Positions 1,108 through 45,365 of a DNA stretch of 45,365 bases are shown in pieces (position 1 is the stretch's first letter; each line of letters starts with the position of its first letter). A program made the position numbers and the translations under genes. Origin of the DNA: an uncultured Candidatus Bathyarchaeia archaeon (GTDB taxonomy: Archaea > Thermoproteota > Bathyarchaeia > Bathyarchaeales > Bathyarchaeaceae); the NCBI GenBank assembly GCA_964346895.1, contig CAYFWY010000002.1:1-45365 (forward strand), written 5' to 3'. The notes beneath the pieces were generated by a model. That model did no database searches, was not told the origin of the DNA, and worked only from the letters and a program-made list of their open reading frames with translations.

Positions 1108-1329
1108 GTGCCCTACGAAACCCCAGCAAAACGGCGTGTTGCGCGCGCGCGCATATACGTGCAACTTCTGCAGGGACAAGGCAAAGAAGAGTACATGTGT
1201 AAGGTAGCGACAACGCTTGAGGAAGCACAAAAATTAATAGAGAGCGGTTTCGAATATGTCACTTCAATGCAGATAGGCAAAATGGTCTATCAGATGTTCA
1301 GGAACAGGAAACCGTGGAAACCATGTTAG
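1108..1329 (+). CDS. Small hypothetical ORF; its C-terminal '..TLEEAQKLIESGFEYVT..FRNRK' module resembles a motif I recall from archaeal integrase/mobile-element-associated ORFs
   Basis: GTG-start ORF whose first third is encoded by the (GC)6 repeat at 1141-1152. An internal ATG (MCKVATT..., about 1195) is a more plausible start. The motif resemblance is from memory only. Confidence 0.3.
   Translation: MPYETPAKRRVARARIYVQLLQGQGKEEYMCKVATTLEEAQKLIESGFEYVTSMQIGKMVYQMFRNRKPWKPC
1139..1154. repeat. Alternating GC palindromic motif TTGCGCGCGCGCGCAT, inverted partner of 1053-1064
   Basis: Read directly. (GC)6 at 1141-1152. Confidence 0.9.
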
Positions 1330-2279
1330 GAAAAGTAGGAGACATCCAAGTAGTCAAAAAGACGGATATGGGATACATTCTGGAGAACGGATGTATAATT
1401 GAGGATACATTTGCTGAAATGTTTCCAATGTGGGCGGGAAGGATATTGATAACCGCTGAGAACGAGAAGTGGGCTCTAACCGCGGCAAAGACAGCGACTG
1501 GATTCGCTGCCTCCATAATTATGTCACCAGCAGAAGCCGGAATAGAAGGCATGGTAAATCCAGAAGAATCTCCAGATGGCCGCATTGGAGCACTAATTCA
1601 AATTTTCCACACAACAAGGAGAGCACTAAAGACTCAAATGAGCTTGAGAATTGGACAATGCATAATGACGTGCCCTACCACAGCAGCTTTCGACGCTTTA
1701 CCCGAGGCTAAAAGGAGATTGAAAGTTGGGAGAAGCCTACGCCTTTTTGGCGACGGTTTCCAAAAAATGGATTTAATCGCAGGAAGAAAGGTATGGCGCA
1801 TACCGATCATGGAAGGAGAATTCATTGTTGAAGACAGCTTCGGCATCGTAAAGGCTGTTGCCAGCGGAAACTTTCTAATCTTGGCAAAAAAACAAAAATC
1901 CGGGCTCCTGGCGGCAGAGGAAGCTATCAAGGCTATCAATCAAAAGGCTCAAAGAGTCATCATGCCCTTCCCAGGCGGAATCTGCGGATCAGGGTCCAAG
2001 ATAGGCTCGGTGAAATACAAACTCGCAGCGTCCACGAACCACCTCTTCTGTCCCACTCTTAGGAAAATCTTGTCCGATTCACAAGTACCAGACAATGTCG
2101 ATAGCGTTTACGAAATAGTGATAAATGGCTTAGATTCGGATAGTGTAAAAACGGCAATGGCTGAAGGGATAAAAGCAGCGGTGAAGGTTCCGGGCATCGT
2201 CAAAATTTCGGCGGGAAATTACGGAGGCAAGCTTGGTCCGTTTCGAGCCAATTTGAAAGAGGTCTTGAAACTAACATAA
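1314..2279 (+). CDS. ftr: Formylmethanofuran--tetrahydromethanopterin N-formyltransferase
   Basis: 'IEDTFAEMFPMWAGRILITA...ALTAAKTATGFAASIIMSPAEAGIE...PDGR...RIGQCIMTCPTTAAFDALPE' closely matches remembered Ftr sequences. The likely true start is ATG 1368 (MGYILENG.., 303 aa), which fits the usual ~300 aa length. Confidence 0.85.
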   Translation: METMLGKVGDIQVVKKTDMGYILENGCIIEDTFAEMFPMWAGRILITAENEKWALTAAKTATGFAASIIMSPAEAGIEGMVNPEESPDGRIGALIQIFHTTRRALKTQMSLRIGQCIMTCPTTAAFDALPEAKRRLKVGRSLRLFGDGFQKMDLIAGRKVWRIPIMEGEFIVEDSFGIVKAVASGNFLILAKKQKSGLLAAEEAIKAINQKAQRVIMPFPGGICGSGSKIGSVKYKLAASTNHLFCPTLRKILSDSQVPDNVDSVYEIVINGLDSDSVKTAMAEGIKAAVKVPGIVKISAGNYGGKLGPFRANLKEVLKLT

Positions 2280-2297: not shown

Positions 2298-3347
2298 TTA
2301 ACTTGTCAATTTGATGTATTCTGTACCCTTTCCTTCCGGAGAACCAACAAGTATTCGATAGTGTTCTCTGCGGGTTTTGTTATCTACAACACGCTCAAGT
2401 TTACCCCTAACTTCAATTGATTCACCAACTTCAGCGATACTGCCGTAAAGGCTTTCGTAAGAAACCACTTCTGCGATCTCACTTATCTGAGGTCCCTCTA
2501 CGATCTTTGCTTCCTCAATGCGATAGACGGAGGGAAGGAATAGGTGGTCTGTGTCGGCGCAGATAACTGCGCGGATAGTTGCTTGATCCACAGGGTAGTA
2601 AGTCTTTGCACCATATTCTTCAGAAATTTCCCACTCTAACTTAACCGGATGAACAGAAAATGATTTGCTTTCAAACATGCCTATGTTCCATTTCCGTTTG
2701 TAAATTTCTAAGGCTTCATCAGGTGTTAACGGATAATTCCTTGCTTTTCTAGCGCACCAAGCTTTAAGGACCTTTCCTTCATAACGTTTAACCGGAGAAC
2801 TTGGTAGAGAATAGTTTTCAATTAAGGCGTCTTTCACTGCTAAACTGCTTTTCAAGCCATAGATTGTTATGTCTATGTCTGAAAACTCGGGTTGATGAAT
2901 GTCTAGGAGGATTGAACCAGTTACTCCGAAAAAGGAGTAGGGGACATTGCTTATTTCTGTCAGAAATGAGGTGAGTCTGGTTAGTTTTTCCTGTAAAGGA
3001 TCTAAATGTGATTTCTGGAGCAGCTGATCCATTTTTTCTTCCGGTTTAAAGTGTTTTTTCAGATGATTATGTGGAACTGCTGTCAAGGTGATATTATAGA
3101 AAGAGGAATGAAACAGATAATGGGGATAGTTTCTTTCTAAAAGACTGAAAGTTTCTAGCAGGTTGGGAATAGTATAGTTTCTCAAAACTCTTTTGAATCG
3201 TTTTTCACCCTTTTTCCAAATACCGAACCGTGATGGAACATATTTTACGTAGGAGATGATTCGGTCCGGAGGATGTAATGAGCCAACTACACAGAAGAAG
3301 AAGCCTTCTCCTGTTTGTAGGAAATCCCTGTCTCTAAATCTTCGCAT
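2298..3347 (-). CDS. Pol-beta-superfamily nucleotidyltransferase with N-terminal 'RFRDRD' domain and C-terminal OB-like domain, paralog 1
   Basis: '[25 protein letters not shown]' is a GS...DxD minimal-NTase motif. The N-terminus '[35 protein letters not shown]' is shared with the two neighbours. The beta-rich C-terminus '[12 protein letters not shown]...[14 protein letters not shown]' looks OB-like. Confidence 0.7.
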
Positions 3348-3405
3348 GACCTTAACCTTTTTGACCAGCGATTATATAGTTATCCAATCTACGGGAGGTT
3401 CGGCA
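3348..3405. promoter_or_regulatory. 58-bp divergent promoter region between NTase paralogs 1 and 2, with a central TTATATA box
   Basis: TTATATA at 3372-3378. GGGAGG at 3393-3398 precedes ATG 3406. Confidence 0.35.
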
Positions 3406-4425
3406 ATGAAAGCATGGACTCCTAGAGACGGGGACACCTTTATCACCAAAGAGGGATTCATCTTCTATGTGTTTGGATATGAGCACCCTAAAAATCGGGT
3501 ATTCTCTTTTCTAAAATACATCCCATACAATCTTAAGTCGCACTTCCCCATACGCTTTCTTAGACAGAAATGGAAGCTCGGAAATGTAGAACTCGCTAGA
3601 GCAGAAAAACTCTACACCGCACAAAACTATCAAAAGCTTCTGGAAACTTTTCGAAGTACATATCCCCAATACGTTTACTCATGCCCTTTCCGTGGAAAAC
3701 AAGTTATAAGCGCTCCATTGGAACTCGTGAAGAGAGTTTACGTGCCAAAAGAGTGCCTTCAGAGGCTCTTTGAAAATAAAAGGAAGGATGGTCTACAGAA
3801 AGTAGCCTTAGAGCTACTCTCCCTTCTCTCCGCCGAATCTAAAGTGCCCTTTGAAGATTTTGGAATCCACGGATCTATTGCACTGAACATGCACACCGCG
3901 AAGTCTGATATCGATCTTGTAGTTTATGAATCTAGAAACTTCAGGAATCTAGAAAAAGCAATCGAAAAACTCGTTCGGGAAGGCACATTAAAATATATTT
4001 TCACAAAGAAGCTTGATAGAGCTAGAAGGCACAGGGGACGTTATAAAGAGAAACTTTTCGTTTACAACGCAGTGAGAAAGATTGGTGAAGTTAACGTTAA
4101 TTATGGGAATTACAAATATGTCCCCATTAGAGATATAACTTTCAGTTGCGAGGTTGTTGATGACAGCGAGGCCATGTTTAGACCCGCAATCTATCAGGTC
4201 AAGAATTGTCAACCCTTTGATCCGAACTCGAAACTGATGGAAGATAAAGTTCCTGAGAGAGTTGTTTCTATGATAGGCTACTACAGAAACGTGGCTAGAA
4301 AAGGAGAGAAAATCATGATATCAGGAATGCTGGAGCGAACGGAAAATGTTGAAACAGGAGAAAATACCTATCAAGCTGTGGTGGGTACAGGAACGCGCGA
4401 GGACGAATACATTTGGCCACTGTAA
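3406..4425 (+). CDS. Pol-beta-superfamily nucleotidyltransferase with OB-like C-terminus, paralog 2
   Basis: '[24 protein letters not shown]'. N-terminus '[32 protein letters not shown]'. ATG 3406 is preceded by GGGAGG (3393-3398). The ORF-track start at 3256 would overlap paralog 1 and is rejected. Confidence 0.7.
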
Positions 4426-5480
4426 GATTTAGGGACCGTGACGCCATAATTACGGCAGATAACATTATTTTCAGAGTTTACGGCTATTTTCATCCCTCAG
4501 ATGCATATGTTTGCGACCCAGAATACGCATCGGCTACAATATATAAATCAATGAATCCCCGAGCTCGACGGGGAAAAGGAAAAAATATTTACTACAAATT
4601 CTACGCAGACGAAGGCTTGCAATTCGTTATGGAAAAATATCCTCACCACAATATTTTCTATGAGCCATTGCAAACAAGTTTCATAGGCGTGTCAAGAGAG
4701 CACATCGCCAAAACGCGCAAACCAAATGATAAATTTCGACATCTGATTATAAAGCGACCCGGAGACAAACTTCTTAGAGCATTACACAGCTTGTCTGCGT
4801 TGGTCATATCCAGATCAGGGTTGTCAGAAAACGATTTCGGAGTTTTTGGCTCCCTCCTTCATGATTTCTATCACCCTACTTTTTCAGACATTGATCTTAT
4901 AGTTTACGGCAGACACAAGCTGAGGGAACTCTGTGAAACATTGAAAGAACTGTACCTCGAAGAGAATTCACTTCAAAACGAGTTTGAGAGCGAGGGGGCT
5001 CTTGAGGGAAAAAATTGGAAATTTGTAAACTTCAGCCCAAAGGAGTATCTCTGGCATCAGCGAAGGAAAAAAATATACGCCCTTTTCAAGAGCAAGGAAG
5101 GAAAAAGAATTGTTAAAACAGAATTCGAGCCAGTGAAAAACTGGAGTGAAATCTATAATGAATATAACCCAGATACACGAGTTCAAAATAGAGGTTGGAT
5201 TAAGGCTATTGCCCGAGTGACCGATGACCAAGATACACCCTTCATTCCGTCAATCTACCAAATCGAAGTTCTCAAAATTCTTGAAGGCTCAAAGGTTGAG
5301 AATATTAAACGAATTCTTTCCTACGTCGAAGAATTCAGGATGCAGGCAAAAAGGGACGAAAATGTTTTCGTGGAGGGAATCCTTGAAGAAGTGAAAACCA
5401 AAACCAAAAAATTTCATCAAATTACTTTAACGTATTGTCCTCGTTATTATGAACAAACTTTGAAGGTTATTAGAACATAA
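4413..5480 (+). CDS. Pol-beta-superfamily nucleotidyltransferase with OB-like C-terminus, paralog 3
   Basis: '[25 protein letters not shown]'. N-terminus '[27 protein letters not shown]'. TTG start overlaps the stop of paralog 2 by 13 nt. C-terminus '[12 protein letters not shown]...[12 protein letters not shown]'. Confidence 0.7.
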
Positions 5481-6509: not shown

Positions 6510-7664
6510 CTATTGTATAACGGAATGATACCAATTGATCATGTATTCGGGCAGTTTTAGTCCTCTTTCTCGTAGTCTTTCAGTCAGTTTAACAGGTAGC
6601 GGGCTCAGAACAAACGCTGTTCTCATGTAAAACCTTCTCGGTTGGCCTGGTCTGACTGTTTCTTCGAGGGTTATTTGGAAGTCTGACTTTTCAGCTAAAG
6701 TTGAATTCCTTGTTCCTGTGATCGATAATACAATTCCTTTCAGTTTCTTGAAGACATTACACCAGATAATAACTGGCTTGGTTTCTCCAGAAAACGACAC
6801 CAAGATCTCTAGATCCCTAGCTCTAGGACGTGGAGTGTTTACGCCTCTCGCTGTATACACATGGTCTCCCAAGAAACCTTTGATGTGGAAAAGTCTTATG
6901 GCGGTCATCTTAACGATTTCATTTGCGGTGCCCTTTCCACCTAGGAAAACGTTGCATCGGCTTTCCAGCAGATCAACTAGATGCGTATATGTTTCTGACT
7001 CCAAATTCGAGTCGATCATTGATCCTAGCGTAGCGAACTCTTCTTTGCATAGCTGAAACACTCCGTCTACTGGTAGGTTTCGGAAGATCGCTTCGGTCAT
7101 CATGCACATAAGCAGTAGACTTTCAAGCTCAAACATATCGCCCATTATGCCTGTTTCGCTGTATTCAAAGGAGGGCTTCGATCTTCCTCGTCCCTTCAAT
7201 TTGATAACATATCCGTATTCACGGGCTATCTGAGCTATGGGAGAGTTCACACCAGAGGTTACAAGTCCTATTGAAAACCTCGATGTTTTTTTATCTTCAA
7301 TATATTTTGCCAAATCTTGCGCCATCGCTAGGGGATCGTCAGAAAAACCGCTTCCTGAGTTTATCAAAAGCAGAATTTTTTTATATCGTCTTTCGAGTTG
7401 AGCAGCCGCATCGTACATACTTTTTCCTGGGAAGCCCGGATCGTCCGGTGTTAACACAATCTTATTTCTCCAGCCTATCTTACTCATTGCGATTTGGCTC
7501 ATCGCTGCGTTCAAGGAGTACAGTGACCTACCTGATCCGCTACAGACCACACAATCGGCGGATTTGAGGTCTTCGTATAAGGGCAAAAGTTGTCGTTGTT
7601 TTATAGAAAGAATGTTATCTCTGATCCTGTTTACGTATTCTAAATTGCTGATTTTGCTTCCCAT
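6510..7664 (-). CDS. Double SIS-domain sugar-phosphate isomerase-like protein
   Basis: 'VVCSGSGRSLYSLNAA', 'LLLINSGSGFSDDPLAMAQ' and 'LVSFSGETKP' resemble SIS phosphosugar-binding motifs repeated in two halves. Exact specificity cannot be determined. Confidence 0.6.
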   Translation of the reverse strand: MGSKISNLEYVNRIRDNILSIKQRQLLPLYEDLKSADCVVCSGSGRSLYSLNAAMSQIAMSKIGWRNKIVLTPDDPGFPGKSMYDAAAQLERRYKKILLLINSGSGFSDDPLAMAQDLAKYIEDKKTSRFSIGLVTSGVNSPIAQIAREYGYVIKLKGRGRSKPSFEYSETGIMGDMFELESLLLMCMMTEAIFRNLPVDGVFQLCKEEFATLGSMIDSNLESETYTHLVDLLESRCNVFLGGKGTANEIVKMTAIRLFHIKGFLGDHVYTARGVNTPRPRARDLEILVSFSGETKPVIIWCNVFKKLKGIVLSITGTRNSTLAEKSDFQITLEETVRPGQPRRFYMRTAFVLSPLPVKLTERLRERGLKLPEYMINWYHSVIQ

Positions 7665-7907: not shown

Positions 7908-9566
7908 TTAAGCCTTTGCTAGAACGCTTCCTAGATGAGCAGGCTCCACGAGCCGAGAATACCGCAGTAGATAACCTTTTCTAACCTTCTGTTGTTTCGG
8001 CTTCCACGACTTTAGACGGTTTACCAGTTCTTCATCAGTCAGCTCTACGTTCAGTTTTCTCTTTGGAACATCAATTTCAATTACATCTCCATCTCTTAGT
8101 AACGCTATCGGTCCGCCCTCAGCTGCTTCGGGAGAAACGTGCCCTATACAGGGTCCTCTGGTAGCTCCTGAAAACCTTCCGTCAGTGACCAAGGCAACTG
8201 ACTCGCTTAACCCCATTCCAGCCAAGGTAGCTGTTGGAGAGAGCATTTCCCTCATTCCCGGCCCCCCCTTTGGTCCCTCATAACGAATGATAACAACCTC
8301 TCCTCCAAGAATTTTCTCATTCAGTATGGCCTCCATAGCTTCCTCCTCAGAGTCGAAAACCTTCGCCGGACCTTTGTGGAAAAGCATTTTAGGTGCTATG
8401 GCAGTGGCTTTCACCACAGCACCTTTGGGTGCCAAGTTTCCCTCCAAGATTGCTATACCCCCCTCAGGATGAACAGGGTTAGTTAGGGGACGAATTACAT
8501 TGGTATCAAGGACTACCGTCTTCTTGATGTTTTCTTCAATAGTTGTTCCCGTAACAGTGAGAGCGTTCAAATGCAGAAGGGGACTTAGCTCGTTCATAAG
8601 AGCAGGGATTCCACCTGCTGCATCTAGATCTTCCATTGTAAAAGGTCCACTGGGAGCCATATTGCAGATGTGAGGAACTCGTCTACTCAATTTATCGAAA
8701 AGAGGTAGAGGTAAGGAAACTTCAGCCTCCCTTGCTATCGCCGAAAGATGCAAGACTGTGTTTGTTGATCCCCCTAACGCCATATCTACCATTACGGCGT
8801 TTTCAAAAGCTTCGGAAGTCAGAATGTCTAGTGGCCTCAGGTCTTCTGTTACTAATTCAACAGCTCTTTCTCCACTGGCCTTGGCAATTCTTAGCCTGGC
8901 AGCGCTAACAGCGGAAGGAGTTGCACATCCCGGAAGAGAAATGCCTAAGGCCTCGGTGAGGCAAGCCATAGTGTTTGCTGTAAACATGCCGTTACACGAC
9001 CCGCAACTAGGACACGCAAGGTTTTCAAGTGTCTTCAACTCTTCTTCATTCATTTTACCTGCAACGACTTCTCCAACGACTTCAAACATGGAAGCTGTAC
9101 CAATTCTCTTTCCGTTGTTGATACCTGAAAGCATGGGTCCACCAGTAACGACGACTGCGGGAAGATTTAGCCTAGCCGCGGCCATCAACATGCCAGGTGT
9201 TGTTTTATCGCAGTTTGCGATCAAAATCATCCCATCAAATCTATGGGCTTGAACCATGACTTCAACTGAATCGGCAATCAGCTCACGTGATGGCAAAGAA
9301 TATTTCATTCCTTCGTGGCCCATGGCCAATCCGTCGCAGATAGCTATTGTGTTGAATTCAAAGGGTACACCACCAGCGGATATGACTCCGGCTTTAATAG
9401 CGTCAGCTACTTGGTTTAGGTGAGCATGACCAGGAACCACTGTTGTGTAACTGTTTACCACGGCAATGAAGGGTTTGTCTAGGTCTTTGTCTGTGATTCC
9501 AAGGGCCTTAAGCAAAGCTCTGTGGGGAGCCCTTTCAACTCCCCGTTTTATAGCGTCACTTCTCAA
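7908..9566 (-). CDS. ilvD: Dihydroxy-acid dehydratase
   Basis: 552 aa. '[19 protein letters not shown]', '[16 protein letters not shown]', '[13 protein letters not shown]', '[28 protein letters not shown]' are hallmark IlvD blocks. Confidence 0.95.
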
Positions 9567-9718
9567 CTTTCTCCCTCTTTGAAGTTTTCCTCTTGGTTAT
9601 TAGAGACTAGATAAATAATAAAGACACAGAAAAGCTTTTATATGGAATACTTTGTTGATGTTCTGGAACGAGGAGCAAAAAATGGGGGATTATTGGGTTT
9701 CCGAGAGATGTGAAATGA

Positions 9719-11251
9719 GGGATCGTTTTATCGAATAGTTTCCCCGAGAAAATAAGAATTTTTGACACCACCCTTAGAGATGGTGAACAAACACCTGGAG
9801 TTTCCCTAACTCCAGAAAACAAACTTAGAATCGCAAAAAGCCTAGACAAACTTGGAGTAGATGCTATCGAGGCTGGTTTCGCTGCGGCATCCGACGGAGA
9901 GATGAGCGCAATAAAACTCATAGCTAAAGCGGGGCTTAGAGCAGAGGTCTACAGTATGGCTAGAGCGGTAAAAAGAGATATAGATGCTGTGCTGGAAAGC
10001 GACGCCGAGGGAGTACATCTGGTTGTTCCTACATCAAATCTACACCTCGAATACAAACTGAAGAAAGATGAGAAAGAAGTCTTAAGATTAGCCGAGGATT
10101 GCACCCAATATGCCAAGGACCACCAACTCGCTGTTGAACTTTCGGCTGAAGACGCCACGAGAAGCGAACTAAGTTTTCTAACCAAAACATTTGATGCATG
10201 CATTTCTGCGGGTGCCGACAGAATTTGTCCATGCGACACCGTTGGAGTTTTGACACCAGAAAAAACTTATGAGCTATTCTCAAAGCTGAGGAATACATTT
10301 CCTCAAGTTCCAATAAGCGCTCACTGCCACAATGACTTTGGATTGGCTGTGGCAAACTCGATATCCGCCTTAAAAAGTGGAGCTGATGAAGTTCACGCTA
10401 CAATAAATGGGTTGGGAGAGAGAGCTGGAAATGCTTCCCTTGAAGAAATAGCTGTTGCCCTGAGGGCAGCCTACAAAGTGAAACTGTCGATAAAAACCGA
10501 GCGGTTGTATGACACATCAAGGCTGGTAGCGCGATTAACTGACTTTCCCCTCCAGCCAAACAAGGCAATCGTAGGAGAAAACGCCTTTGTTCACGAGTCA
10601 GGTATGCACACTCATGGTATATTGGCACATCCATTGACCTATGAACCAATTTCCCCCGAGTTAGTTGGACGTACTAGGCGACTGGCGTCTGGCAAACACG
10701 CTGGTTCTCATGGAATCAAAGCGTCTCTAAATGAAATGGGACTAAACCCAAGTGATGAGCAACTTCAAAAGGTCTTTTTGCAAGTGAAAACATTAGGAGA
10801 TAAAGGCAAGAAGGTCACCGATGCTGATTTGCAGACAATAGCGGAAACTGTAATGGGACTACCAAAAACCCGTTCAATAAAGCTTGAAGAGCTAACGGTT
10901 GTCACAGGAGACAGAGTTACCCCAACAGCTTCGGTGCGCTTAAGCCTAAACGGCAACGTGCTAACAGAAGCAGCTATTGGAGTAGGCCCAGTAGATGCAG
11001 CGATGAATGCTGTGAAGAAGGCTGTCTTAGCTGTTGACCCTATACAGCTGGAAAACTACTCTGTTAAAGCGATCACCGGAGGCACCGAAGCCGTCACTGA
11101 AGTTGCCGTTCAGTTGCGTAGAGGTAATAGAATAGCTACAGCCATAGGAGTTAATGATGATATAGTGATAGCGAGCATTCAGGCAATGCTGAGTGGCATG
11201 AATGTATTGATGACAGATTATAGCAAAGTTAAGTTAAAGGAGAAATCTTGA
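9719..11251 (+). CDS. cimA: (R)-citramalate / 2-isopropylmalate synthase family (CimA/LeuA); N-terminus lacks a canonical in-frame start
   Basis: My translation upstream of the ORF-track start (9902) gives '..FPEKIRIFDTTLRDGEQTPGVSLTPENKLRIAKSLDKLGVDAIEAGF'. This is very close to the remembered M. jannaschii CimA N-terminus. 'HCHNDFGLAVANS' and a C-terminal regulatory domain are present. The frame is open only from 9719 and has no ATG/GTG/TTG before the catalytic motif (see finding). Confidence 0.85.
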   Translation, partial: GIVLSNSFPEKIRIFDTTLRDGEQTPGVSLTPENKLRIAKSLDKLGVDAIEAGFAAASDGEMSAIKLIAKAGLRAEVYSMARAVKRDIDAVLESDAEGVHLVVPTSNLHLEYKLKKDEKEVLRLAEDCTQYAKDHQLAVELSAEDATRSELSFLTKTFDACISAGADRICPCDTVGVLTPEKTYELFSKLRNTFPQVPISAHCHNDFGLAVANSISALKSGADEVHATINGLGERAGNASLEEIAVALRAAYKVKLSIKTERLYDTSRLVARLTDFPLQPNKAIVGENAFVHESGMHTHGILAHPLTYEPISPELVGRTRRLASGKHAGSHGIKASLNEMGLNPSDEQLQKVFLQVKTLGDKGKKVTDADLQTIAETVMGLPKTRSIKLEELTVVTGDRVTPTASVRLSLNGNVLTEAAIGVGPVDAAMNAVKKAVLAVDPIQLENYSVKAITGGTEAVTEVAVQLRRGNRIATAIGVNDDIVIASIQAMLSGMNVLMTDYSKVKLKEKS

Positions 11252-12954
11252 AAATGGTCAGAATGTCTGGCGCAAAGGCCTTCGTAGAGGCTTTAGAACA
11301 ACAAAACGTAGAGGTAATATTCGGCATATCCGGAGGAGCTGTCATCCCCGTGCATGACGTTCTGCGCGACTCAAGAATAAGACACATTCTCACTCGCCAT
11401 GAACAATGCGCAGCCCATGCAGCTGATGGCTATGCCCGTGCCAGTGGACGACCTGGAGTATGCATGGCAACATCTGGGCCAGGAGCGACCAACCTGGTTA
11501 CAGGCATAGCTAACGCTTACTTGGACTCTTCGCCAGTCATCGCGTTCACCGGTCAGGTCAACACGTTTTCTACAATCTCGTCGTACATGATAGGCAGGGA
11601 CGCATTCCAAGAAGCTGACATAATTGGCATAACCACGCCCGTTACAAAGTATAATTGTCAGGTGAAAAAAGCCTCAGAGATTCCGAAAACCGTAAGGTTA
11701 GCTTTTCACATAGCTACAACAGGGAGACCCGGGCCAACTTTGGTCGATCTTCCAAAGAACGTTCAAACCGAAATCGATGAAATGGAATTTTCGGACAAAG
11801 TAGAGGTTCGAGGCTACAAACCCAAGACAGAGCCTCATCCAATCCAAGTAAAAAAAGCAGTCAAACTCCTCTTTGCGGCAAAGCAGCCGATTGTCTTGGC
11901 GGGTGGAGGAGTAATCATTTCAAATGCTACCCCTGAACTTCTAGAGCTGGCCGAGCTGATGATGATGCCTGTGGCAACAACTTTTATGGGAAAAGGAGGT
12001 TTCCCTGAAAATCATCCCCTCTCCCTTGGAAACGTGGGCATGCATGGAACTCATGCAGCAAATAAACTGATCTGCGAAGCCGATGTTCTTCTGGCGGTGG
12101 GAACGAGGTTCTCAGATAGAACCACTGGAACATTGGACCATTTTTGTTCCGATGCAAAGATAATTCACATTGATGTAGATGCAGCGGAAATCGGGAAAAA
12201 CGTGGAAGTTGACGTACCGATCGTAGCTGACGCAAAGGAGGCGCTAAGGGTAATTCGCCAATTGTTAGTTCATCGGTTAAAACAGAGGGAGAATTCTCCT
12301 TGGTTTATCAGAGTTAAAGAAGTTAAGGAGCAGTTTCAAAGTGAGATGGACCCCAGAGGTGGCGACTTGAAACCACCACTACTACTGAAAGAACTGCGAA
12401 AAATGCTGCCAGCTAATTCAATCCTGACTACTGAGGTGGGACAAAATCAGATGTGGGCGGCCCTGTACTTTAAGACGTATAAGCCTAGAACGTTCATTAG
12501 CTCAGGTGGCTTGGGAACAATGGGCTTCGGTTTCCCAGCAGCCCTTGGAGCCAAAGTTGCTTGTCCCAGAACTTTGGTTGTGGATATAGCTGGCGACGGA
12601 AGTTTCAGAATGACAGAACAAGAACTCGCATGTTCAGTCATGGAGAAAATTCCGGTGACGGTGATAATTTTGAACAATTCAATGCTGGGTATGGTTGCCC
12701 AGTGGCAGAGACTCTTCTACAACAGGAGATATTCCGCCGTGAAATTGGGAAGTTCCCCCGACTTTGTTAAGTTGGCTGAAGCCTATGGTGCCCAAGGCTT
12801 TCGTGCTGGATCACTAAAAGAGTTTTCTGAAGCTGTGAATAAAGCCTTGAAAAGTGAGGTTACTACAGTCATTGATGTTCCAATTTCTCCTGAAGAAAAC
12901 GTGTTTCCAATGGTTCCAGCAGGCAAGGGTCTCAAAGATACAATTTCAGGGTGA
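11248..12954 (+). CDS. ilvB: Acetolactate synthase large (catalytic) subunit, ThDP-dependent
   Basis: 'GAKAFVEALEQQNVEVIFGISGGAV', 'GPGATNLVTGIANAYLDSSPV', 'GLGTMGFGFPAALGAK', 'GDGSFRMTEQEL'. Start overlaps the cimA stop. Confidence 0.9.
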   Translation: MKMVRMSGAKAFVEALEQQNVEVIFGISGGAVIPVHDVLRDSRIRHILTRHEQCAAHAADGYARASGRPGVCMATSGPGATNLVTGIANAYLDSSPVIAFTGQVNTFSTISSYMIGRDAFQEADIIGITTPVTKYNCQVKKASEIPKTVRLAFHIATTGRPGPTLVDLPKNVQTEIDEMEFSDKVEVRGYKPKTEPHPIQVKKAVKLLFAAKQPIVLAGGGVIISNATPELLELAELMMMPVATTFMGKGGFPENHPLSLGNVGMHGTHAANKLICEADVLLAVGTRFSDRTTGTLDHFCSDAKIIHIDVDAAEIGKNVEVDVPIVADAKEALRVIRQLLVHRLKQRENSPWFIRVKEVKEQFQSEMDPRGGDLKPPLLLKELRKMLPANSILTTEVGQNQMWAALYFKTYKPRTFISSGGLGTMGFGFPAALGAKVACPRTLVVDIAGDGSFRMTEQELACSVMEKIPVTVIILNNSMLGMVAQWQRLFYNRRYSAVKLGSSPDFVKLAEAYGAQGFRAGSLKEFSEAVNKALKSEVTTVIDVPISPEENVFPMVPAGKGLKDTISG

Positions 12955-13469
12955 CTGTAATGGCAAAGGAAAAAAATCATATAATATCCACTATCGTTGA
13001 ACATAAACCAGGTGTGCTTTATATTGTTGCAAATCTGTTCAGGCGCAGAGGATTCAACATAGAAAGCATCTCTGTAGGGTCTACAGAACAAAGCGAACTA
13101 GCTAGAATGACTATTACAGTTAAAGGAGACGAAAGAACCATCGAGCAAGTGATTAAGCAGCTGAACAAGTTAGTCGATGTCATAAAGGTAAGTAAGTTGG
13201 ATCCAGCCAACATTGTTATAAGGGAACTAGCTCTAATCAAAGTACGCGCGTTGGACACCAAAGTCAGATCGGATGTAATCAACTACGCTGACATCTTTAG
13301 GGCGCGAGTGGTTGACGTTTCCTCCGAATCGTTGATGGTGGAGATCACGGGAACTTCAGATAAGATAACCGCCTTCCTTGATTTGATGAGACCCTTCGGT
13401 GTGAAAGAGATCGCTAGAACCGGAGTAACTGCCCTCTCCCGAGGAGTTAAATCCCTTAGAATCGAGTAA
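12951..13469 (+). CDS. ilvN: Acetolactate synthase small (regulatory, ACT-domain) subunit
   Basis: '[36 protein letters not shown]....RMTI' is the typical IlvH/IlvN ACT domain. Overlaps the ilvB stop. ATG 12960 is an alternative start. Confidence 0.85.
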
Positions 13470-14476
13470 TGACTGGTGGCTTTCAATTGGTGAAAGTATA
13501 TTACGACAAAGATGTAAGTTTAGATCTCTTAAAGAACAAAACTATAGCCGTAATTGGTTACGGAAGTCAAGGATACGCTCAAGCTCAAAACATGAGAGAT
13601 TCGGGTTTGAACGTTGTAGTGGGTTTGAGACCTGAAGGTAAATCGTGGAACGGAGCCAAAAAAGATGGCTTTGAAGTTTATTCAGTTTCTGAAGCAGCTG
13701 AAAAAGGTGACATAATCCATATGTTGATTCCAGATTTGGAGCAGCCGGCGGTTTACAGGGACCATGTGGATCCTCAATTGACATCCGGAAAAATTCTAGG
13801 TTTTGCCCATGGATTCAACATACATTTTAAGCAGATTACTCCACCGTCGAATGTTGATGTTGTTATGGTTGCTCCAAAAAGCCCAGGATTCAAGGTTAGA
13901 GATATGTATCTTGATGGCTTTGGAGTACCAGCGTTAATCGCAGTCTACCAAGACTATTCGGGTCAAGCGAAGAGAATCGCCTTGTCCATGGCTAAAGGTC
14001 TTGGATGCACTAAAGCCGGTGTCCTAGAAACATCATTTAAGGAAGAGACAGAAAGCGACCTCGTGGGTGAACAAACTGTGCTCATTGGTGGCTTAATTGA
14101 ACTCATCAAAACGGGCTTTGAGGTCCTTGTGGAAGCAGGGTATCAACCAGAACTTGCGTACTTCGAAGCTTGCAACGAGGCGAAACTGATAATGGATCTA
14201 ATTTATCAGGGAGGATTTACGGGCATGCTTAAAGCGGTCTCGAAAACAGCAAACTACGGTGGATTAGTCGTTGGACCTAAAGTCATTGACGAACACGTGA
14301 AGGAGAACATGAGAAAAGCAGTTAGGGACGTCCAAAGCGGTAAGTTTGCAAAAGAATGGATTAAAGAGAGAGAAACAGGTGAAAGAAAAATGAATACTTT
14401 ACTAAAGAAAATTGAGGATCATCAAATCGAGAAGGTAGGTAGGTTCATTAGAAAAACTGCTGGAATTGAAAAATAG
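13469..14476 (+). CDS. ilvC: Ketol-acid reductoisomerase
   Basis: '[29 protein letters not shown]', '[10 protein letters not shown]', '[16 protein letters not shown]'. Start overlaps the ilvN stop. Confidence 0.95.
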
Positions 14477-21292: not shown

Positions 21293-21946
21293 ATGTCTGA
21301 AAAGTTTGCTAAAAAATGGGGAGAAGGAATAGACGATACACCTATCTCTACGAGAATCAAAGAAGCTGTTCGCCCTCCAGGTCCATTGAAACCACGCTTA
21401 GATTACGCCATCAAACGAATTACTATGCAAATCCAAAGACTAGACAAGGCAACCGACCGCTTCTCAGAACGCGACAAATCAATATTCGCAAAAATCGTCA
21501 ACGCCTACTCAAAACACGACATGGCACGAGCCAACGTTTTCGCCAACGAACTGGCTGAAATACGAAAAATGGAAAGAATGATAATCCACGCAAGACTAGC
21601 CTTGGAACAAATATCCCTCAGGTTAAGCACAGTTTCAGAACTCGGCGACGTCGTTAGCACACTGGCTCCAGCAATCGGCGTTTTACGCAGCGTCAAAAAC
21701 GGAATGGCAGCAGTCTTTCCAGAAGCTGAAAGGGAACTTGGAAGCATTGGAAACTTACTCAGCGGAATAATTATGGATGCCGGCCACAACTCTGGTTTGA
21801 ACATAGACTTCCAGACAGCAGGCGAAGACGCCCAGAAAATCTTAAACGAAGCAGCCACGGTTGCGGAACAGAAAGTCAAAGAAAAATTCCCAGACCTACC
21901 CACTGGCATACCTACCTTCGGCGAGGCAGCCCAAACCGAAACTTAA
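21293..21946 (+). CDS. cdvB: ESCRT-III/Snf7-family protein (CdvB paralog without winged helix)
   Basis: Helical; 'ARANVFANELAEIRKMERMI..ARLALEQISLRLSTV.ELGDVV' is shared with the paralog at 22813. Sits in a cluster with cdvA and vps4. Confidence 0.75.
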   Translation: MSEKFAKKWGEGIDDTPISTRIKEAVRPPGPLKPRLDYAIKRITMQIQRLDKATDRFSERDKSIFAKIVNAYSKHDMARANVFANELAEIRKMERMIIHARLALEQISLRLSTVSELGDVVSTLAPAIGVLRSVKNGMAAVFPEAERELGSIGNLLSGIIMDAGHNSGLNIDFQTAGEDAQKILNEAATVAEQKVKEKFPDLPTGIPTFGEAAQTET

Positions 21947-21992
21947 CCAACCAAGAAAACTTGACGTTTCATGGATATAAGGAGGTGAAACC

Positions 21993-22730
21993 ACGTCAAA
22001 ATCCACTTCCAACCCCTTTCTCTTTATTGGCAAGCAAGTTAAGGATGAATACGGACGCCAAATTGGTCGAGTAGCATCATTCAGAGTAACCCCTACCGGT
22101 CGCGTAGATGGGATATTCATAGAACATGGGGACGGAGAATTTCTTAGCTATCCAAGCGATCAATTTAGAGTGGAAAATGGTGACTTTGTAATTTTGCCGC
22201 CGCTCAAATTGCGGGCAAAAACTCTCTGTCAGCAAATACCTCTTATCTGGCGAAAAGATCAGGCTTTGAACGAGCTTGTAGATAAGAAAAAGATCCCGCC
22301 GGAAATGTTTGATGATCTCCACAACAATTTTGAAGGAGCTTTAAACCAGTTGAAAGCAGACGCTAAAGCGGTTATGGACGACACAAACAAACAGATCACT
22401 AAATGCACGAAACAAATAACAGAACTCCACTCAGCCTTGATAAATCTGGAAATTGAGCGCGAAATTGGCAGAATCGACGACGAATCGTACGAGAAAGCTT
22501 TAGGAATAATACAGTGGGGATTAAAAGGCGTTAACGCCGAAAAAAGCGATCTGGAAGCGTTGAAGAGCAAACTATTCAACCTACTTCTAGGAGAAACTAC
22601 AGTGAAGCCACCTGAAACAGGAACCCAGAAGGAGACGCAAGAAGCAACTGCTCCCGCTTCTCCTCCTTCCCCAAATCTTCCAGAACCACCAGTTGTTGTT
22701 CACGTGAGGAACCCGAATAACCAGAAGTAA
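21993..22730 (+). CDS. cdvA: CdvA (PRC-barrel plus coiled coil plus Pro-rich C-terminal tail); non-canonical start
   Basis: My translation upstream of ATG 22170 in the same frame gives '..SKSTSNPFLFIGKQVKDEYGRQIGRVASFRVTPTGRVDGIFIEHGDGEFLSYPSDQF', a PRC-barrel-like N-terminus typical of CdvA. A 10-nt SD, AAGGAGGTGA, lies at 21979-21988. The only codon at proper spacing in frame is ACG 21993 (see finding). Confidence 0.7.
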   Translation, partial: TSKSTSNPFLFIGKQVKDEYGRQIGRVASFRVTPTGRVDGIFIEHGDGEFLSYPSDQFRVENGDFVILPPLKLRAKTLCQQIPLIWRKDQALNELVDKKKIPPEMFDDLHNNFEGALNQLKADAKAVMDDTNKQITKCTKQITELHSALINLEIEREIGRIDDESYEKALGIIQWGLKGVNAEKSDLEALKSKLFNLLLGETTVKPPETGTQKETQEATAPASPPSPNLPEPPVVVHVRNPNNQK

Positions 22731-22812
22731 TAAACATTAAAGCCTGTGAGGGATCGCCATAAAAAACCCTTTCAGTAATCCTGTAACACTTGAAGACGTA
22801 ATCTTTGAGGCA

Positions 22813-23622
22813 GTGCCGAAACTTAAAACTCAGCGATTTAAACTCGGACAAGTCATAGTTAGATTGCATCAAAGAGATACAGCCCTGTTCAAGACCTGTT
22901 CAGAAGCACTAAAAGAAAAAAACATCGAACGCGCAACGATTTTCGCTAACGAGCTAGCGGAAATCAGAAAATTGACTAAAATTATCTCCCAGACCCAAAT
23001 CTTCGTAGAACGCGTAATATTAAGACTTGAAACACTCAAAGAATTTAGCGCAGCCTTCGCAGATCTGAAGCCAGCTCTTAGAATTCTTCACACAGTGACA
23101 AAGCGTCTCACAATAATAATGCCTCAAATGGCATATGAAATGGAAAGGGTTAACGAGAGCATAAACGAAACGCTAGCCATGACGACCATCAGTTCTTCAG
23201 AGTTAAACATGCCAATAGATGTAAAGACTCCAGGTGGCGAAGAAGTCCTTAAAGAAGTCTCAGCCTTTCTGGAAAAGAAATTAACGGAGGAATTACCTGA
23301 GCCGCCGATTTCAGCTCCGGTCATGGAAAAGTCTCGTCACGTAGAAAAAGTTAAACAACTGGTTGCTCTCACCGCTACTTGCTCAGAAGTTCGTGAACAA
23401 ACCGAACCTCAAAACTACATATCTTACAAAGACACGGAATTGAAGCGCGTTTCCTTCATGGTTCAAGAGTCTTTAGCAGAAACAGTTCTGGAATACGCCA
23501 AAAAACGTGAAGGACAAATTGACATCAGCCAATGCGCATTTGATCTGAATATTCCATGCGGAGAAGTGGAAAAAGCCCTAGAAAAATTGGGTATGCAAGG
23601 CAAGATAACAATCGAACGGTGA
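22813..23622 (+). CDS. cdvB: ESCRT-III/Snf7-family protein with C-terminal winged helix (CdvB)
   Basis: 'ERATIFANELAEIRKLTKII' core, plus the C-terminal 'VLEYAKKREGQIDISQCAFDLNIPCGEVEKALEKLGMQGKITIE' wH-like domain. GTG start. Confidence 0.75.
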   Translation: MPKLKTQRFKLGQVIVRLHQRDTALFKTCSEALKEKNIERATIFANELAEIRKLTKIISQTQIFVERVILRLETLKEFSAAFADLKPALRILHTVTKRLTIIMPQMAYEMERVNESINETLAMTTISSSELNMPIDVKTPGGEEVLKEVSAFLEKKLTEELPEPPISAPVMEKSRHVEKVKQLVALTATCSEVREQTEPQNYISYKDTELKRVSFMVQESLAETVLEYAKKREGQIDISQCAFDLNIPCGEVEKALEKLGMQGKITIER

Positions 23623-23627
23623 CCCTC

Positions 23628-24788
23628 ATGAGTGCATCCCATGAACTTGAAAAAGCTGCAACGAGCTATGCACTTGAAGCAGTTCGCCTCGATAAACAAG
23701 GCTCTAGAGGAATGGCCATCACCATGTATCAGAAGGGCATTTCAACCCTTCTAAAACTCGTCCAGTTGTACCCCAACTACGGTCTAAACAAGGTTTACAT
23801 TCAACGTGCAATGGCATATCAAGAAAGAATAAAAGCTCTGCAAGGTGTTGGGCCTATTCAGCCGCAAACAGAAAAAGCGGCTGACATGATAGAGCCCTCA
23901 GGAGCAAAAGAAAAGGCAACTTACGATGAACTGGTGCTCAAAGAAAAACCGGAAGTAAACTGGAATCAAGTTGTTGGTTTAGAGCAGGCAAAGAAAGCCG
24001 TCAAAGAAGCCATCGTTTATCCTGTTGAGAGACCAGATTTGTTCACACTGGGATGGCCCAGAGGAATACTTCTCTTCGGCCCGCCTGGATGCGGAAAAAC
24101 CTTACTAGCCGCTGCGGTTGCTACAGAGATCGACGCAAACTTCATTTCAGTGGATGCAGCCTCGATCATGTCAAAATGGCTAGGAGAAGCTGAGCAAAAT
24201 GTCGCAAGACTTTTTGCTTCGGCTAGGAAATCTGCCAATAACGGATGCCCAGCAATAGTTTTCATCGACGAATTAGATTCGCTAATCGGAATGCACTCAA
24301 CCGAGGTTGGTGGAGAAACCAGAGTTCGAAACCAGTTCCTAAAAGAAATGGATGGAATTATAGACAAGGGCAAGAACATTCATGCTTATGTGATTGGAGC
24401 TACCAACAAACCTTGGGCTTTAGATTGGCCCTTCATAAGGAGATTTCAGAAGCGAATAATAGTTCCCTTACCGGATTACGAAGCACGCCTAAAAATGCTT
24501 AAACTGTATACAACTCATCTGAAATTGGCGCCAGATGTGGATCTCGATGAATTTGCAAGGTTGTCTGAAGGATTCTCTGGAAGTGACATAAGGGACGTAT
24601 GCCAATCAGCCCACCTAAAGGTTATTGGAGAACTCTTCGAATCGGGTCTAGCAAGTGATAAACATGCTCAGCCGAGACCCATGTCCATGGATGACTTTAG
24701 AATGATCTTAGAAGAAAGAAAACCTAGCGTTTCCCTAGACATGGTGGCATCTTACAACCGATGGTTTGACGCCTTTAAGGCGCTCTAA
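23628..24788 (+). CDS. cdvC: Vps4-type AAA+ ATPase (CdvC) with N-terminal MIT domain
   Basis: MIT-like 'AATSYALEAVRLDKQG...AITMYQKGISTLLKL'. 'GILLFGPPGCGKTLLA' (Walker A), 'IVFIDELDS' (Walker B), 'ATNKPWALDWPFIRRF'. ATG 23628 follows GGTGA. The ORF-track start at 23556 overlaps cdvB. Confidence 0.9.
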   Translation: MSASHELEKAATSYALEAVRLDKQGSRGMAITMYQKGISTLLKLVQLYPNYGLNKVYIQRAMAYQERIKALQGVGPIQPQTEKAADMIEPSGAKEKATYDELVLKEKPEVNWNQVVGLEQAKKAVKEAIVYPVERPDLFTLGWPRGILLFGPPGCGKTLLAAAVATEIDANFISVDAASIMSKWLGEAEQNVARLFASARKSANNGCPAIVFIDELDSLIGMHSTEVGGETRVRNQFLKEMDGIIDKGKNIHAYVIGATNKPWALDWPFIRRFQKRIIVPLPDYEARLKMLKLYTTHLKLAPDVDLDEFARLSEGFSGSDIRDVCQSAHLKVIGELFESGLASDKHAQPRPMSMDDFRMILEERKPSVSLDMVASYNRWFDAFKAL

Positions 24789-24946: not shown

Positions 24947-25684
24947 TCACTTACGACCAGAAAAAAGCTTGATAATTATTGAAATTTTTTCGTCTCCTCT
25001 GATGGTAATTCCCCTCAATGTTGAAATCATCCCAAGAATAGTATTTCTTAAAATTTTCTTAACAAAAGGATTTAATGGTAAGACGCGTTCATCAAGCTGA
25101 AGTTGTAGTTTTTCTTTGTCTTCCCGTTTTCTTTCAATTAACATTGCAGCTTTTTGGGCCACTAGATTCACTAACTTTTCAGGCTCTTTAAGTGCGTCGA
25201 CGTAACGAATTTTCGGTTTCGCCCCTTCGATATGAATGGGACCAACGAAAGTGAGTATGGGTCTATAGTTTTTAGAAGCCTCAAGAACCTCATCGATTTT
25301 TTTGACAGCAACAATTTTTGGCACGGCTAGATTTTGGCCAATTAATTTCTTGAAACCTTCAAGGACTATAATTTCCACATAATCTTTACATTCTGCAACC
25401 AACTGTTCTAGGCTGTATTTTGCAGTTTCGGCTTTTCTGATGACGGCCAGTTCGTTTGGTGCTACGCTTATGATGGTGCGAGCTCCAGCCTTGGCGTGCC
25501 TCCAAGTGTCTTTCCCAGTGGTGTCAATCGTAAAGTCAGTTTCGGGTATGTGCTTAAATGTAGCGACATTGTAGCCTCTTTCTGTCAGTCCTCTGATTAA
25601 GATTTCAACGGCGGTGGTTTTACCTGATTTTTTGCCTCCAACGACAGCGACCAGAAACATATTGTATTCGCACCTCTCTTGCAT
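24947..25684 (-). CDS. mobB: MobB-like P-loop protein (molybdopterin-guanine dinucleotide biosynthesis adapter family) with C-terminal extension
   Basis: 'VAVVGGKKSGKTTAVEILIRGLTERGYNVATFKHIPE.DFTIDTTGKDTWRHAKAGA'. The likely start is the Met of MFLVAVV (about 25660). Confidence 0.7.
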   Translation of the reverse strand: MQERCEYNMFLVAVVGGKKSGKTTAVEILIRGLTERGYNVATFKHIPETDFTIDTTGKDTWRHAKAGARTIISVAPNELAVIRKAETAKYSLEQLVAECKDYVEIIVLEGFKKLIGQNLAVPKIVAVKKIDEVLEASKNYRPILTFVGPIHIEGAKPKIRYVDALKEPEKLVNLVAQKAAMLIERKREDKEKLQLQLDERVLPLNPFVKKILRNTILGMISTLRGITIRGDEKISIIIKLFSGRK

Positions 25685-45020: not shown

Positions 45021-45365
45021 TTAACTTGGTTTTATTATCCCGTCTTTCATCATTATTTTTCTTTCTGCATAGCCGGCAATATCTTTTTCATGGGTGATGA
45101 CAATAATTGTGGTTTTTGTCTCTTCATGGAATTTTTTGAGTAAATCCATGACTTGTTTTCCGGGTGTTGAAATGAGGCAACAATGAATAGGTTTGGAATA
45201 TGAAGCCCATCTCCAACAGCCTAGACTTGGACTTGGCAGAATCACTTAATTCATGAAGGTTTTTCCCGCGAAACAGTACAACTCCATAATCGGGTTTATC
45301 GAGACCTGCGATGCAATTTAAGAGAGTTGTTTTTCCTGCCCCAGAATTTCCTAAAATCGCAACAA
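45021..45365 (-). pseudogene. ABC-transporter ATP-binding protein (MacB/LolD-like) with internal deletion and frameshift; runs off the window
   Basis: My reverse translation from the window edge gives 'VAILGNSGAGKTTLLNCIAGLDKPDYGVVLFRGKNLHELSDSAKSKSRLLEMGFIFQTYSLLPHF' (Walker A, Q-loop). It then reads 'NTRKTSHGFTQKIP' and stops at 45124-45126. A different frame (ORF 45021..45245) holds the normal C-terminus 'STPGKQVMDLLKKFHEETKTTIIVITHEKDIAGYAERKIMMKDGII'. The LSGGQ signature and Walker B are missing between the two parts. Confidence 0.6.

Follow-up and report, generated by a model that had tools for sequence, protein, structure and literature searches.

The contig CAYFWY010000002.1 of an uncultured Candidatus Bathyarchaeia archaeon (assembly GCA_964346895.1) was analyzed from position 1 to position 45,365, a stretch referred to here as the window. 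The analysis was centered on three adjacent genes whose products combine a nucleotidyltransferase (NTase) domain with an oligonucleotide/oligosaccharide-binding (OB) fold. Paralog 1 (p1) is an open reading frame (ORF) of 349 aa on the minus strand (2298–3347), paralog 2 (p2) encodes 339 aa on the plus strand from an ATG at 3406 (3406–4425), and paralog 3 (p3), the most divergent of the three, is an ORF of 355 aa on the plus strand with a TTG start (4413–5480). The longest ORF of p2 opens at 3256, within p1; the start that is consistent with the homologues is the ATG at 3406, and a GGAGGT (3394–3399) is located 6 nt 5′ of it. The divergent p1 and p2 genes are separated by a spacer of 58 bp (3348–3405) that contains an A/T box (TTATATA, 3372–3378) and that, as read from its sequence, is probably a shared bidirectional archaeal promoter. 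The p2 and p3 ORFs overlap by 13 nt (4413–4425), making translational coupling of these two genes probable. The ORFs at these coordinates, the spacer and the overlap had all been described in a first-pass annotation of the same DNA and were reproduced here from the ORFs and the sequence itself. No RNA-seq runs containing the region of the trio were found, the region being present only in DNA metagenomes from mangrove, estuary and sediment. The paralogy of the three proteins, also proposed earlier, was borne out by BLASTP: the homology spans the whole protein length, with 28% identity between p1 and p2 (6e-35), 30% between p1 and p3 (4e-34) and 26% between p2 and p3 (1e-15).

A structural model of p1 calculated with AlphaFold2 (mean pLDDT 88.9) backs the three-part layout that had been read from the sequence. 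It consists of an N-terminal alpha/beta domain (residues ~1–110), an NTase core (~117–245) and a C-terminal domain (~248–349) that is all beta with a pLDDT of ~90. The N-terminal domain is one of the family's own and carries an RDRD/HP signature with invariant D/E-x-D...HP residues; it found no match when residues 1–246 were modeled alone and searched with Foldseek. The C-terminal domain resembles the OB folds of SSB, of editosome OB proteins and of the anticodon-binding domain of LysRS with a Foldseek probability of up to 0.99 (target-normalized TM 0.5–0.58, root-mean-square deviation ~4–6 Å), but the E-values are weak (6e-3 or worse). With the full-length model the Foldseek matches were confined to this OB domain, and no PDB structure matched p1 over its full length. 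Residues 1–246 modeled alone retrieved mostly Pol-beta NTases with weak scores (E 0.03 or worse), the closest structures to the catalytic half being poly(A) polymerases and archaeal CCA-adding enzymes (query-normalized TM ~0.2–0.27 over ~150 columns). The Pfam family NTP_transf_2 (gathering cut-off 21 bits) was matched by p2 (22.5 bits), p3 (25.7 bits) and the related protein MJ1086 of Methanocaldococcus jannaschii (39.6 bits); p1 had no Pfam match, and p3 found no match among PDB sequences even at E ≤ 10. NCBIfam holds no model for the MJ1086-like NTase-OB family and no dedicated Pfam model was found. The hG[GS]-x(9-13)-[DE]h[DE] motif of the Pol-beta-like nucleotidyltransferase superfamily is present in p1, p2 and p3 (GIHGS...SDIDLVVY in p2), and the motif, the Pfam matches of p2 and p3 and the Foldseek searches together support the Pol-beta-type NTase fold and the C-terminal OB fold that the first-pass annotation had assigned. 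The G-x-G-S...D-x-D motif is shared with the members of the superfamily (NTP_transf_2; CCA-adding enzyme, poly(A) polymerase, ANT(2″), MNT), whereas the separate N-terminal domain and the fused C-terminal OB fold set p1–p3 apart from other Pol-beta NTases, to which the structural similarity is very weak. The family is an uncharacterized variant of the Pol-beta NTase kind.

Two explanations of the trio start from this architecture. The first, favored in the first-pass annotation on account of the OB fold, is that the proteins are RNA- or single-stranded DNA-directed NTases (3′ tailing, tRNA modification or repair, with nucleotide signaling as a further option) in which the OB fold holds the nucleic acid and the three copies serve three substrates. 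The types of OB fold matched by p1 and the weak resemblance of its catalytic half to poly(A) polymerases and CCA-adding enzymes agree with this, but small-ligand binding and oligomerization are also among the functions of OB folds, and the head, neck, body and tail Pfam domains of class I CCA-adding enzymes and poly(A) polymerases are not matched in p1–p3 (E ≤ 1). TiaS is likewise archaeal with an OB fold near its C-terminus, but its TCKD, FLD, tRNA_anti-codon and Zn ribbon domains were not detected in p1–p3 with Pfam, and the TiaS of M. jannaschii is encoded by a separate gene. The second explanation, a role in defense or signaling as MNT-type antitoxins or CD-NTase-like second-messenger synthases, draws on the minimal GS...DxD motif in common, on a very weak MntA match (E 0.08; 12.8 bits, where the cut-off is 60) and on the weak structural resemblance to CdnC and CdnE that Foldseek returned (E 0.26–0.76). 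MNT antitoxins of type VII toxin–antitoxin systems are, however, proteins of ~100–150 aa encoded beside a HEPN toxin, whereas p1–p3 measure 339–355 aa and have no adjacent HEPN partner and no effector gene nearby. The vertical conservation of the family, its near single-copy presence in methanogen core genomes and its stable metabolic operons are the opposite of patchy defense islands, and a defense role is regarded as highly improbable.

The distribution of the family was examined with a profile of p1–p3. At E ≤ 1e-3 it retrieved 1318 clusters (50% identity), and these consist almost entirely of full-length proteins of 330–360 aa. Homologues of p1 are numerous in the Bathyarchaeia and are named at most "predicted nucleotidyltransferase". 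A total of 80 loci were obtained by scanning one genome per species, and one contig carrying p1 itself was added for the copy counts (81 loci). The 80 loci span the Bathyarchaeia, nine Asgard lineages, Ignisphaera, the Desulfurococcales, the Thermoproteaceae, the Nezha, Kor and Culex lineages and the Methanomethylicia, and also include hot-spring Nitrososphaeria and two metagenome-assembled genomes (MAGs) of Anaerolineales. According to tblastn, two copies are present in 46 of the 81 loci, one in 26, three in six and four in three, and an adjacent pair is the commonest arrangement (46 out of 81). The earlier expectation that single copies are conserved in archaea thus holds for 26 of these loci and for the methanogen loci that were examined, but not for the 46 loci with an adjacent pair; its other half, that the family is conserved in archaea and uncharacterized, agrees with the names given in the sources ("predicted nucleotidyltransferase", and "uncharacterized" for MJ1086). 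No literature on MJ1086 or its NTase-OB family was found, the library searched being incomplete, so that earlier work is possible.

Clustering of 147 full-length members gave four subfamilies. Subfamily A (80 members, including p1) is found in nearly every locus, and subfamily B (41 members) is its usual partner: adjacent A and B genes occur in 41 loci, and all nine Asgard loci show the order B then A. The window has no member of subfamily B, none having been found in its 45 kb with tblastn. Subfamily C (16 members, including p2) is mainly found in the Bathyarchaeia, and subfamily D (10 members, including p3) lies directly beside C in eight of the ten loci that hold it, the other two being L007 and L071. 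The assignments are distinct, with p1 scoring 503 bits against the hidden Markov model (HMM) of subfamily A and 266, 196 and 156 bits against those of B, C and D, p2 scoring 565 bits against the model of C and p3 632 bits against that of D. The set of A, C and D seen in the window recurs in six loci (L002, L003, L005, L008, L010 and L071), and all four subfamilies occur together in three (L006, L007 and L021). Identity is 42–57% within the subfamilies and 24–30% between them, which indicates old duplications rather than a recent triplication. A recent or lineage-specific tandem triplication was rejected on this basis, and also because A and B each span several phyla. By these sequence comparisons p1, p2 and p3 are assigned to three anciently separated subfamilies. 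In the close relatives L002–L005 an asparagine-synthase-like gene and a gene for a 243-aa membrane protein, both named by reading the sequences, are located between the C and A genes; the window contains neither, and the gap between p1 and p2 is only 58 bp.

The catalytic residues were compared across the alignment of the 147 sequences. All three paralogs keep the G-x-G-S...S-D-x-D motif, as had been noted before, and in each of the four subfamilies every sequence has G141, G144, S145, S156, D157 and D159 (100%; numbered as in p1). E240, which follows the strand 228–235, is 92–100% conserved, and H25-P26, G315 and E318 are kept at 93–100%, with E318, in the OB domain, at 100%. E240 and E318 are the candidates for the third catalytic carboxylate, which Pol-beta-like NTases carry on a later strand. 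Since the catalytic residues are kept in all four subfamilies, no member looks like a dead enzyme, and it is very probable, judging from the alignment, that all three copies in the window are catalytically competent. Two positions are fixed or nearly so within each subfamily and differ between them: position 143, inside the G-x-G-S motif, is T in A, S in B, H in C and F in D, and position 233, beside the catalytic residues, is H in A, R in B, N in C and E in D (window ~2919–2921 and ~2649–2651 for p1, minus strand). The pattern is as expected for specificity determinants, for which the two positions are candidates. Such subfamily-specific active-site residues favor distinct roles for the paralogs, and different specificities or a hetero-oligomer, as proposed in the first-pass annotation, are possible for the trio.

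Two further genes in the window bear on the function of the trio. The gene for formylmethanofuran--tetrahydromethanopterin N-formyltransferase (Ftr; 1314–2279, plus strand; NCBIfam NF002554 at 414 bits, cut-off 297) lies tail-to-tail with p1 across a gap of 18 bp, and a homologue of the ATP:triphosphoribosyl transferase CitG (25767–26729, minus strand; Pfam CitG 2.1e-72) is located ~20 kb from the trio and shares 22% identity with CitG of Escherichia coli (E 2e-10). All ORFs of the 80 species-level loci were clustered and neighbors within 6 kb of a family gene were counted. A CitG-like gene was present in 25 of the 80 loci, often directly adjacent, and Ftr, a recurrent neighbor of subfamily A, in 22. 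These are followed by an ECF-S-like membrane protein (18 loci), a RimK-type ATP-grasp protein (13), FwdA, FwdB and FwdC (12 each), a CofE-like protein (10), Mch (7), MptA, a DHPS-like protein, DUF1464 and Mtd (6 each) and a DmrX-type flavoprotein (5). A Pfam count over 133 immediate neighbors gave FTR 9, CitG 8, RimK 8, ECF-S 5 and GCHY-1 3. Most of the recurrent neighbors, and all those ranked at the top, belong to the methanofuran/tetrahydromethanopterin one-carbon (C1) pathway or to methanopterin biosynthesis. The labels were checked with HMMs: CitG was matched at 1e-57, and MptA, the DHPS-like protein (TIGR00284) and dihydromethanopterin reductase (TIGR02700) scored above their NCBIfam cut-offs. 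MptN was the best NCBIfam model for seven of the nine ATP-grasp neighbors tested, though it scored below its cut-off; for the ATP-grasp neighbor in locus L087 a generic RimK-family model scored slightly above MptN, and the one in L029 proved to be LysX and was discounted as an MptN-like protein.

The organization of these neighborhoods differs between phyla. Five Asgard loci contain the operon DUF1464-DmrX-DHPS-like-MptA-B-A or a subset of it, the Bathyarchaeia show A followed by B, CitG and ECF-S on the opposite strand, Ignisphaera has CitG-A, and the Kor lineage and the Methanomethylicia have Fwd-Mch-(ATP-grasp)-A. Clusters of "tail" genes are seen as ATP-grasp-CitG-B in L053 and as B-CitG-CofE-ATP-grasp-A in L051. 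This variation argues against simple inherited synteny as the source of the association. In addition, the cluster representative P0257 is a fusion of a bacterial-type HPPK (3e-40) to a B-type member, directly followed by the genes for a flavoprotein and a DHPS-like protein. HPPK is an enzyme of the pterin pathway.

These neighborhoods lend no support to a nucleic-acid substrate. No RNA-related family was found among the 25 most shared gene clusters or the 25 top neighbor Pfam families of the 80 loci, which leaves RNA-processing, tRNA and ribosomal families absent from the most frequent neighbors, and a fusion to HPPK would make no sense for an RNA enzyme. NTases acting on RNA or single-stranded DNA are an improbable explanation of the trio, and the first-pass annotation was right in its structural reading of these proteins and probably wrong in its functional guess. 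A context link to the biosynthesis of methanopterin-type cofactors is, by contrast, well supported by comparative genomics, and it is likely that the NTase-OB family acts in this synthesis.

Some loci extend this picture. The HPPK::NTase-OB fusion is encoded at L085 (5626–9086) and also at L086, on a bacterial-looking contig with MacB/FtsX, GntR and TPR genes, and the arrangement CitG-B-A also occurs in the loci of the two Anaerolineales MAGs (L053 and L081). The bacterial-looking loci suggest either a methanopterin-like pathway in some Chloroflexota or mis-binned contigs. In ten loci (L014–L018, L021, L046, L069, L076 and L078) the ECF-S-component-like membrane protein and a 169-aa winged-helix regulator are present, often together with CitG-B, a possible sign that a cofactor precursor is taken up or regulated.

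The family extends to cultured methanogens. The protein MJ1086 of M. jannaschii (UniProt Q58486, "uncharacterized protein") was identified as a member by exact-sequence look-up, its cluster being represented by P0259, which had been found with the p1–p3 profile. MJ1086 has the same three-domain layout and the same length (~340 aa) as the proteins of the trio but is present in one copy at the examined locus, against three (A, C and D) in the window, and it scores ~250 bits against the models of both A and B, that is, between these two subfamilies. Orthologues of MJ1086 (at least 45% identity) are found in the Methanococcales, Methanobacteriales, Methanomicrobiales and Hydrothermarchaeota, are near single-copy in methanogen core genomes and are named "nucleotidyltransferase domain-containing protein" or "DNA polymerase beta domain protein region". 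One copy each was present at the examined methanogen loci L082, L087 and L090–L092. The divergent neighbor of the family gene in L087 is a RimK-type ligase, and in a Hydrothermarchaeota contig (L092, 7043–7618) a chorismate-lyase-like (Rv2949c-like) gene lies directly downstream; 4-hydroxybenzoate is reported as a precursor of methanopterin. In Methanobacteriales-type contigs (L090 and L091, 3500–5950) the divergent neighbors are DUF366/PCC, PTPS and a radical SAM protein, and in M. jannaschii the neighbors (AroE, an NYN-like protein and mevalonate kinase) are uninformative. The euryarchaeal context is thinner, yet consistent with the methanopterin link. The NYN-like neighbor, MJ1085 (L082, 8475–10004; 509 aa), overlaps the start of MJ1086 by 4 nt and has a weak match to NYN/Zc3h12a-like RNases (22.9 bits, just below the cut-off), which makes it the sole RNA-related neighbor noticed at any locus. 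MJ1085 was considered as a paralog or informative partner of MJ1086 and rejected, being unrelated with only this match below the cut-off.

The association with CitG points to a possible reaction. Methanogenesis, anaerobic methane oxidation and the archaeal Wood–Ljungdahl pathway all use tetrahydromethanopterin as their C1 carrier. In the tail of methanopterin an alpha-ribofuranosyl-5-phosphate is joined by a phosphodiester to alpha-hydroxyglutarate, to which MptN adds glutamate, and the bacterial dephospho-tetrahydromethanopterin (dephospho-H4MPT) contains neither the phosphate nor the hydroxyglutarate (PMC8141765). No paper assigning the hydroxyglutarate step was found in the literature searched, an incomplete library. 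We know of no enzyme identified for the ribosyl-phosphate and hydroxyglutarate steps of the synthesis. In E. coli citX and citG are adjacent and annotated as phosphoribosyl-dephospho-CoA transferase and triphosphoribosyl-dephospho-CoA synthase; CitG uses ATP to form a 5-triphospho-alpha-ribosyl adduct, and CitX moves this adduct to a hydroxyl with loss of pyrophosphate. CitX and MdcG, the partners of CitG and MdcB, resemble the NTase-OB family in the adjacency of their genes to a CitG homologue, and by analogy the family may likewise pair with a CitG-type enzyme, place a group containing 5-phosphoribosyl on a hydroxyl and release pyrophosphate. The acceptor of CitX is a serine of an acyl carrier protein, whereas that proposed for the NTase-OB proteins is a small hydroxy acid, and CitX, with 183 aa, has neither the OB fold nor the N-terminal domain of the family.

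In the proposed pathway the CitG-like enzyme would act first and, with ATP, load the pterin-aminophenylribitol precursor at its ribitol hydroxyl with a 5-triphospho-alpha-D-ribosyl group. The resulting donor resembles a nucleoside triphosphate. In the active site of the NTase-OB enzyme its alpha-phosphate would then be attacked by the hydroxyl of (S)-2-hydroxyglutarate, with pyrophosphate leaving as in ordinary Pol-beta NTase chemistry. The product would be the ribose-5-phosphodiester-hydroxyglutarate tail of methanopterin, to which an MptN-like ligase would add glutamate. Within the trio, subfamily A would be the core enzyme. C and D would serve as additional subunits of a heteromer, or else would pass the same donor on to other acceptors and so produce a variant cofactor tail. 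Such a mechanism would explain why the chemistry is that of an NTase, why the family is paired with CitG and lies next to MptN-like genes, and why a member is fused to a pterin-pathway enzyme. The exact step, that is, the joining of the 5-phosphoribosyl unit to 2-hydroxyglutarate through a phosphodiester, is proposed from the CitG/CitX analogy as the likeliest one, a tentative assignment with somewhat less than an even chance of being correct. The broader proposal that the MJ1086-type family is the missing side-chain enzyme of methanopterin and that B, C and D attach other head groups in the Asgard, TACK and Bathyarchaeia lineages is doubtful at present.

Several points weigh against the proposed role and mechanism. 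The family has no detectable homology to CitX of E. coli (hhalign with the family alignment, probability 0.14%), so that the analogy with CitX is functional only, and the OB fold and the conserved N-terminal domain are not accounted for by the mechanism. Older work with extracts reportedly suggested that the ribosyl group comes from phosphoribosyl pyrophosphate (PRPP) and that hydroxyglutarate is added to a ribosyl-5-phosphate intermediate in a separate reaction dependent on ATP, and an adenylylation mechanism would fit such reactions instead. The NTase-OB proteins might then act in the same cofactor pathway at another step or by another mechanism, through adenylylation of ribose-5-phosphate or hydroxyglutarate with a second paralog resolving the intermediate, or through nucleotidylation of a pterin intermediate. 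The same neighborhood evidence would apply, the adjacent A and B pairs of 41 loci could represent the two half-reactions, and the residues fixed by subfamily at positions 143 and 233 would be in line with it; but the single copy at the examined methanogen loci means that one protein is probably enough there, and the close link to CitG suggests a triphosphate donor made without adenylylation. Another step of the pathway is on balance unlikely but still a real possibility, and it has the best claim among the alternatives.

Further reservations concern the gene context. The functional case is an inference from gene context and chemical plausibility, that is, from comparative genomics; the counts are not fully independent, since a good number of the loci belong to related Bathyarchaeia; and the context of the family gene in M. 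jannaschii and the Methanobacteriales is weak. Moreover, genes for methanopterin and for methanofuran occur together in the C1 gene clusters, and the ATP-grasp, CofE-like, Fwd and Ftr neighbors therefore cannot separate the two cofactors. The trio might accordingly build or modify another C1 or redox cofactor, for example the side-chain moieties of methanofuran or an F420-like tail: Fwd and Ftr also use methanofuran, and CofE-like and RimK-type ligases are the neighbors in 10 and 13 loci. MyfB, a bacterial homologue of MptN, elongates methylofuran, and the enzymes for the linker and the terminal group of methanofuran are not known (PMC8141765). A pterin cofactor is nevertheless indicated by the HPPK fusion and by the operons with MptA, DHPS-like and dihydromethanopterin reductase genes. 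In addition, no methanofuran is known to carry a phosphodiester or ribosyl group, which an NTase paired with CitG would explain. Synthesis of such another cofactor is quite unlikely, only slightly less so than a role on nucleic acids. The best overall explanation remains that the A, C and D proteins of the window are active enzymes of the synthesis of a tetrahydromethanopterin-type cofactor and not nucleic-acid enzymes, a conjunction for and against which we consider the chances to be evenly balanced.

Some other genes of the window were also noted. Downstream of the trio, on the opposite strand, a 384-aa protein (6510–7664) is weakly similar to 6-phospho-3-hexuloisomerase (77 bits, cut-off 160) and may be related to formaldehyde or ribulose monophosphate (RuMP) metabolism. 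A gene for a MobB-like P-loop protein (24947–25684, minus strand) adjoins the CitG-like gene. In a Cdv-type cell-division cluster (21293–24788), CdvA and a Vps4-like AAA ATPase with a MIT domain accompany two Snf7/ESCRT-III-like genes, each of which falls slightly short of the Pfam cut-off. A TACK or Bathyarchaeia origin of the window is consistent with this cluster, with the abundance of p1 homologues in the Bathyarchaeia and with the metagenomes in which the region occurs. A thioredoxin-like and peroxiredoxin-like pair (23–977, both under the NCBIfam cut-offs) and a branched-chain amino-acid cluster (7908–14476; ilvD, leuA-like, ilvB, ilvN and ilvC) are ordinary housekeeping genes.

The NTase-OB family provides a concrete candidate for the gap in the methanopterin pathway, with culturable and genetically tractable representatives in MJ1086 and its Methanococcus orthologues, a partner in the CitG homologue and a reaction that can be tested. 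If the proposal is correct, the 1318 clusters that are now called "predicted nucleotidyltransferase" or even "DNA polymerase subunit beta" would receive a better annotation, and the family would be an example of a Pol-beta NTase fold, fused to an OB fold, whose substrate is a small-molecule cofactor and not nucleic acid. It would also be a possible target for inhibitors of methanogens. For the uncultured lineages, the four subfamilies would hint at undescribed cofactor variants in the Bathyarchaeia and the Asgard archaea, and these organisms would use variants of methanopterin with tails that have not yet been described.

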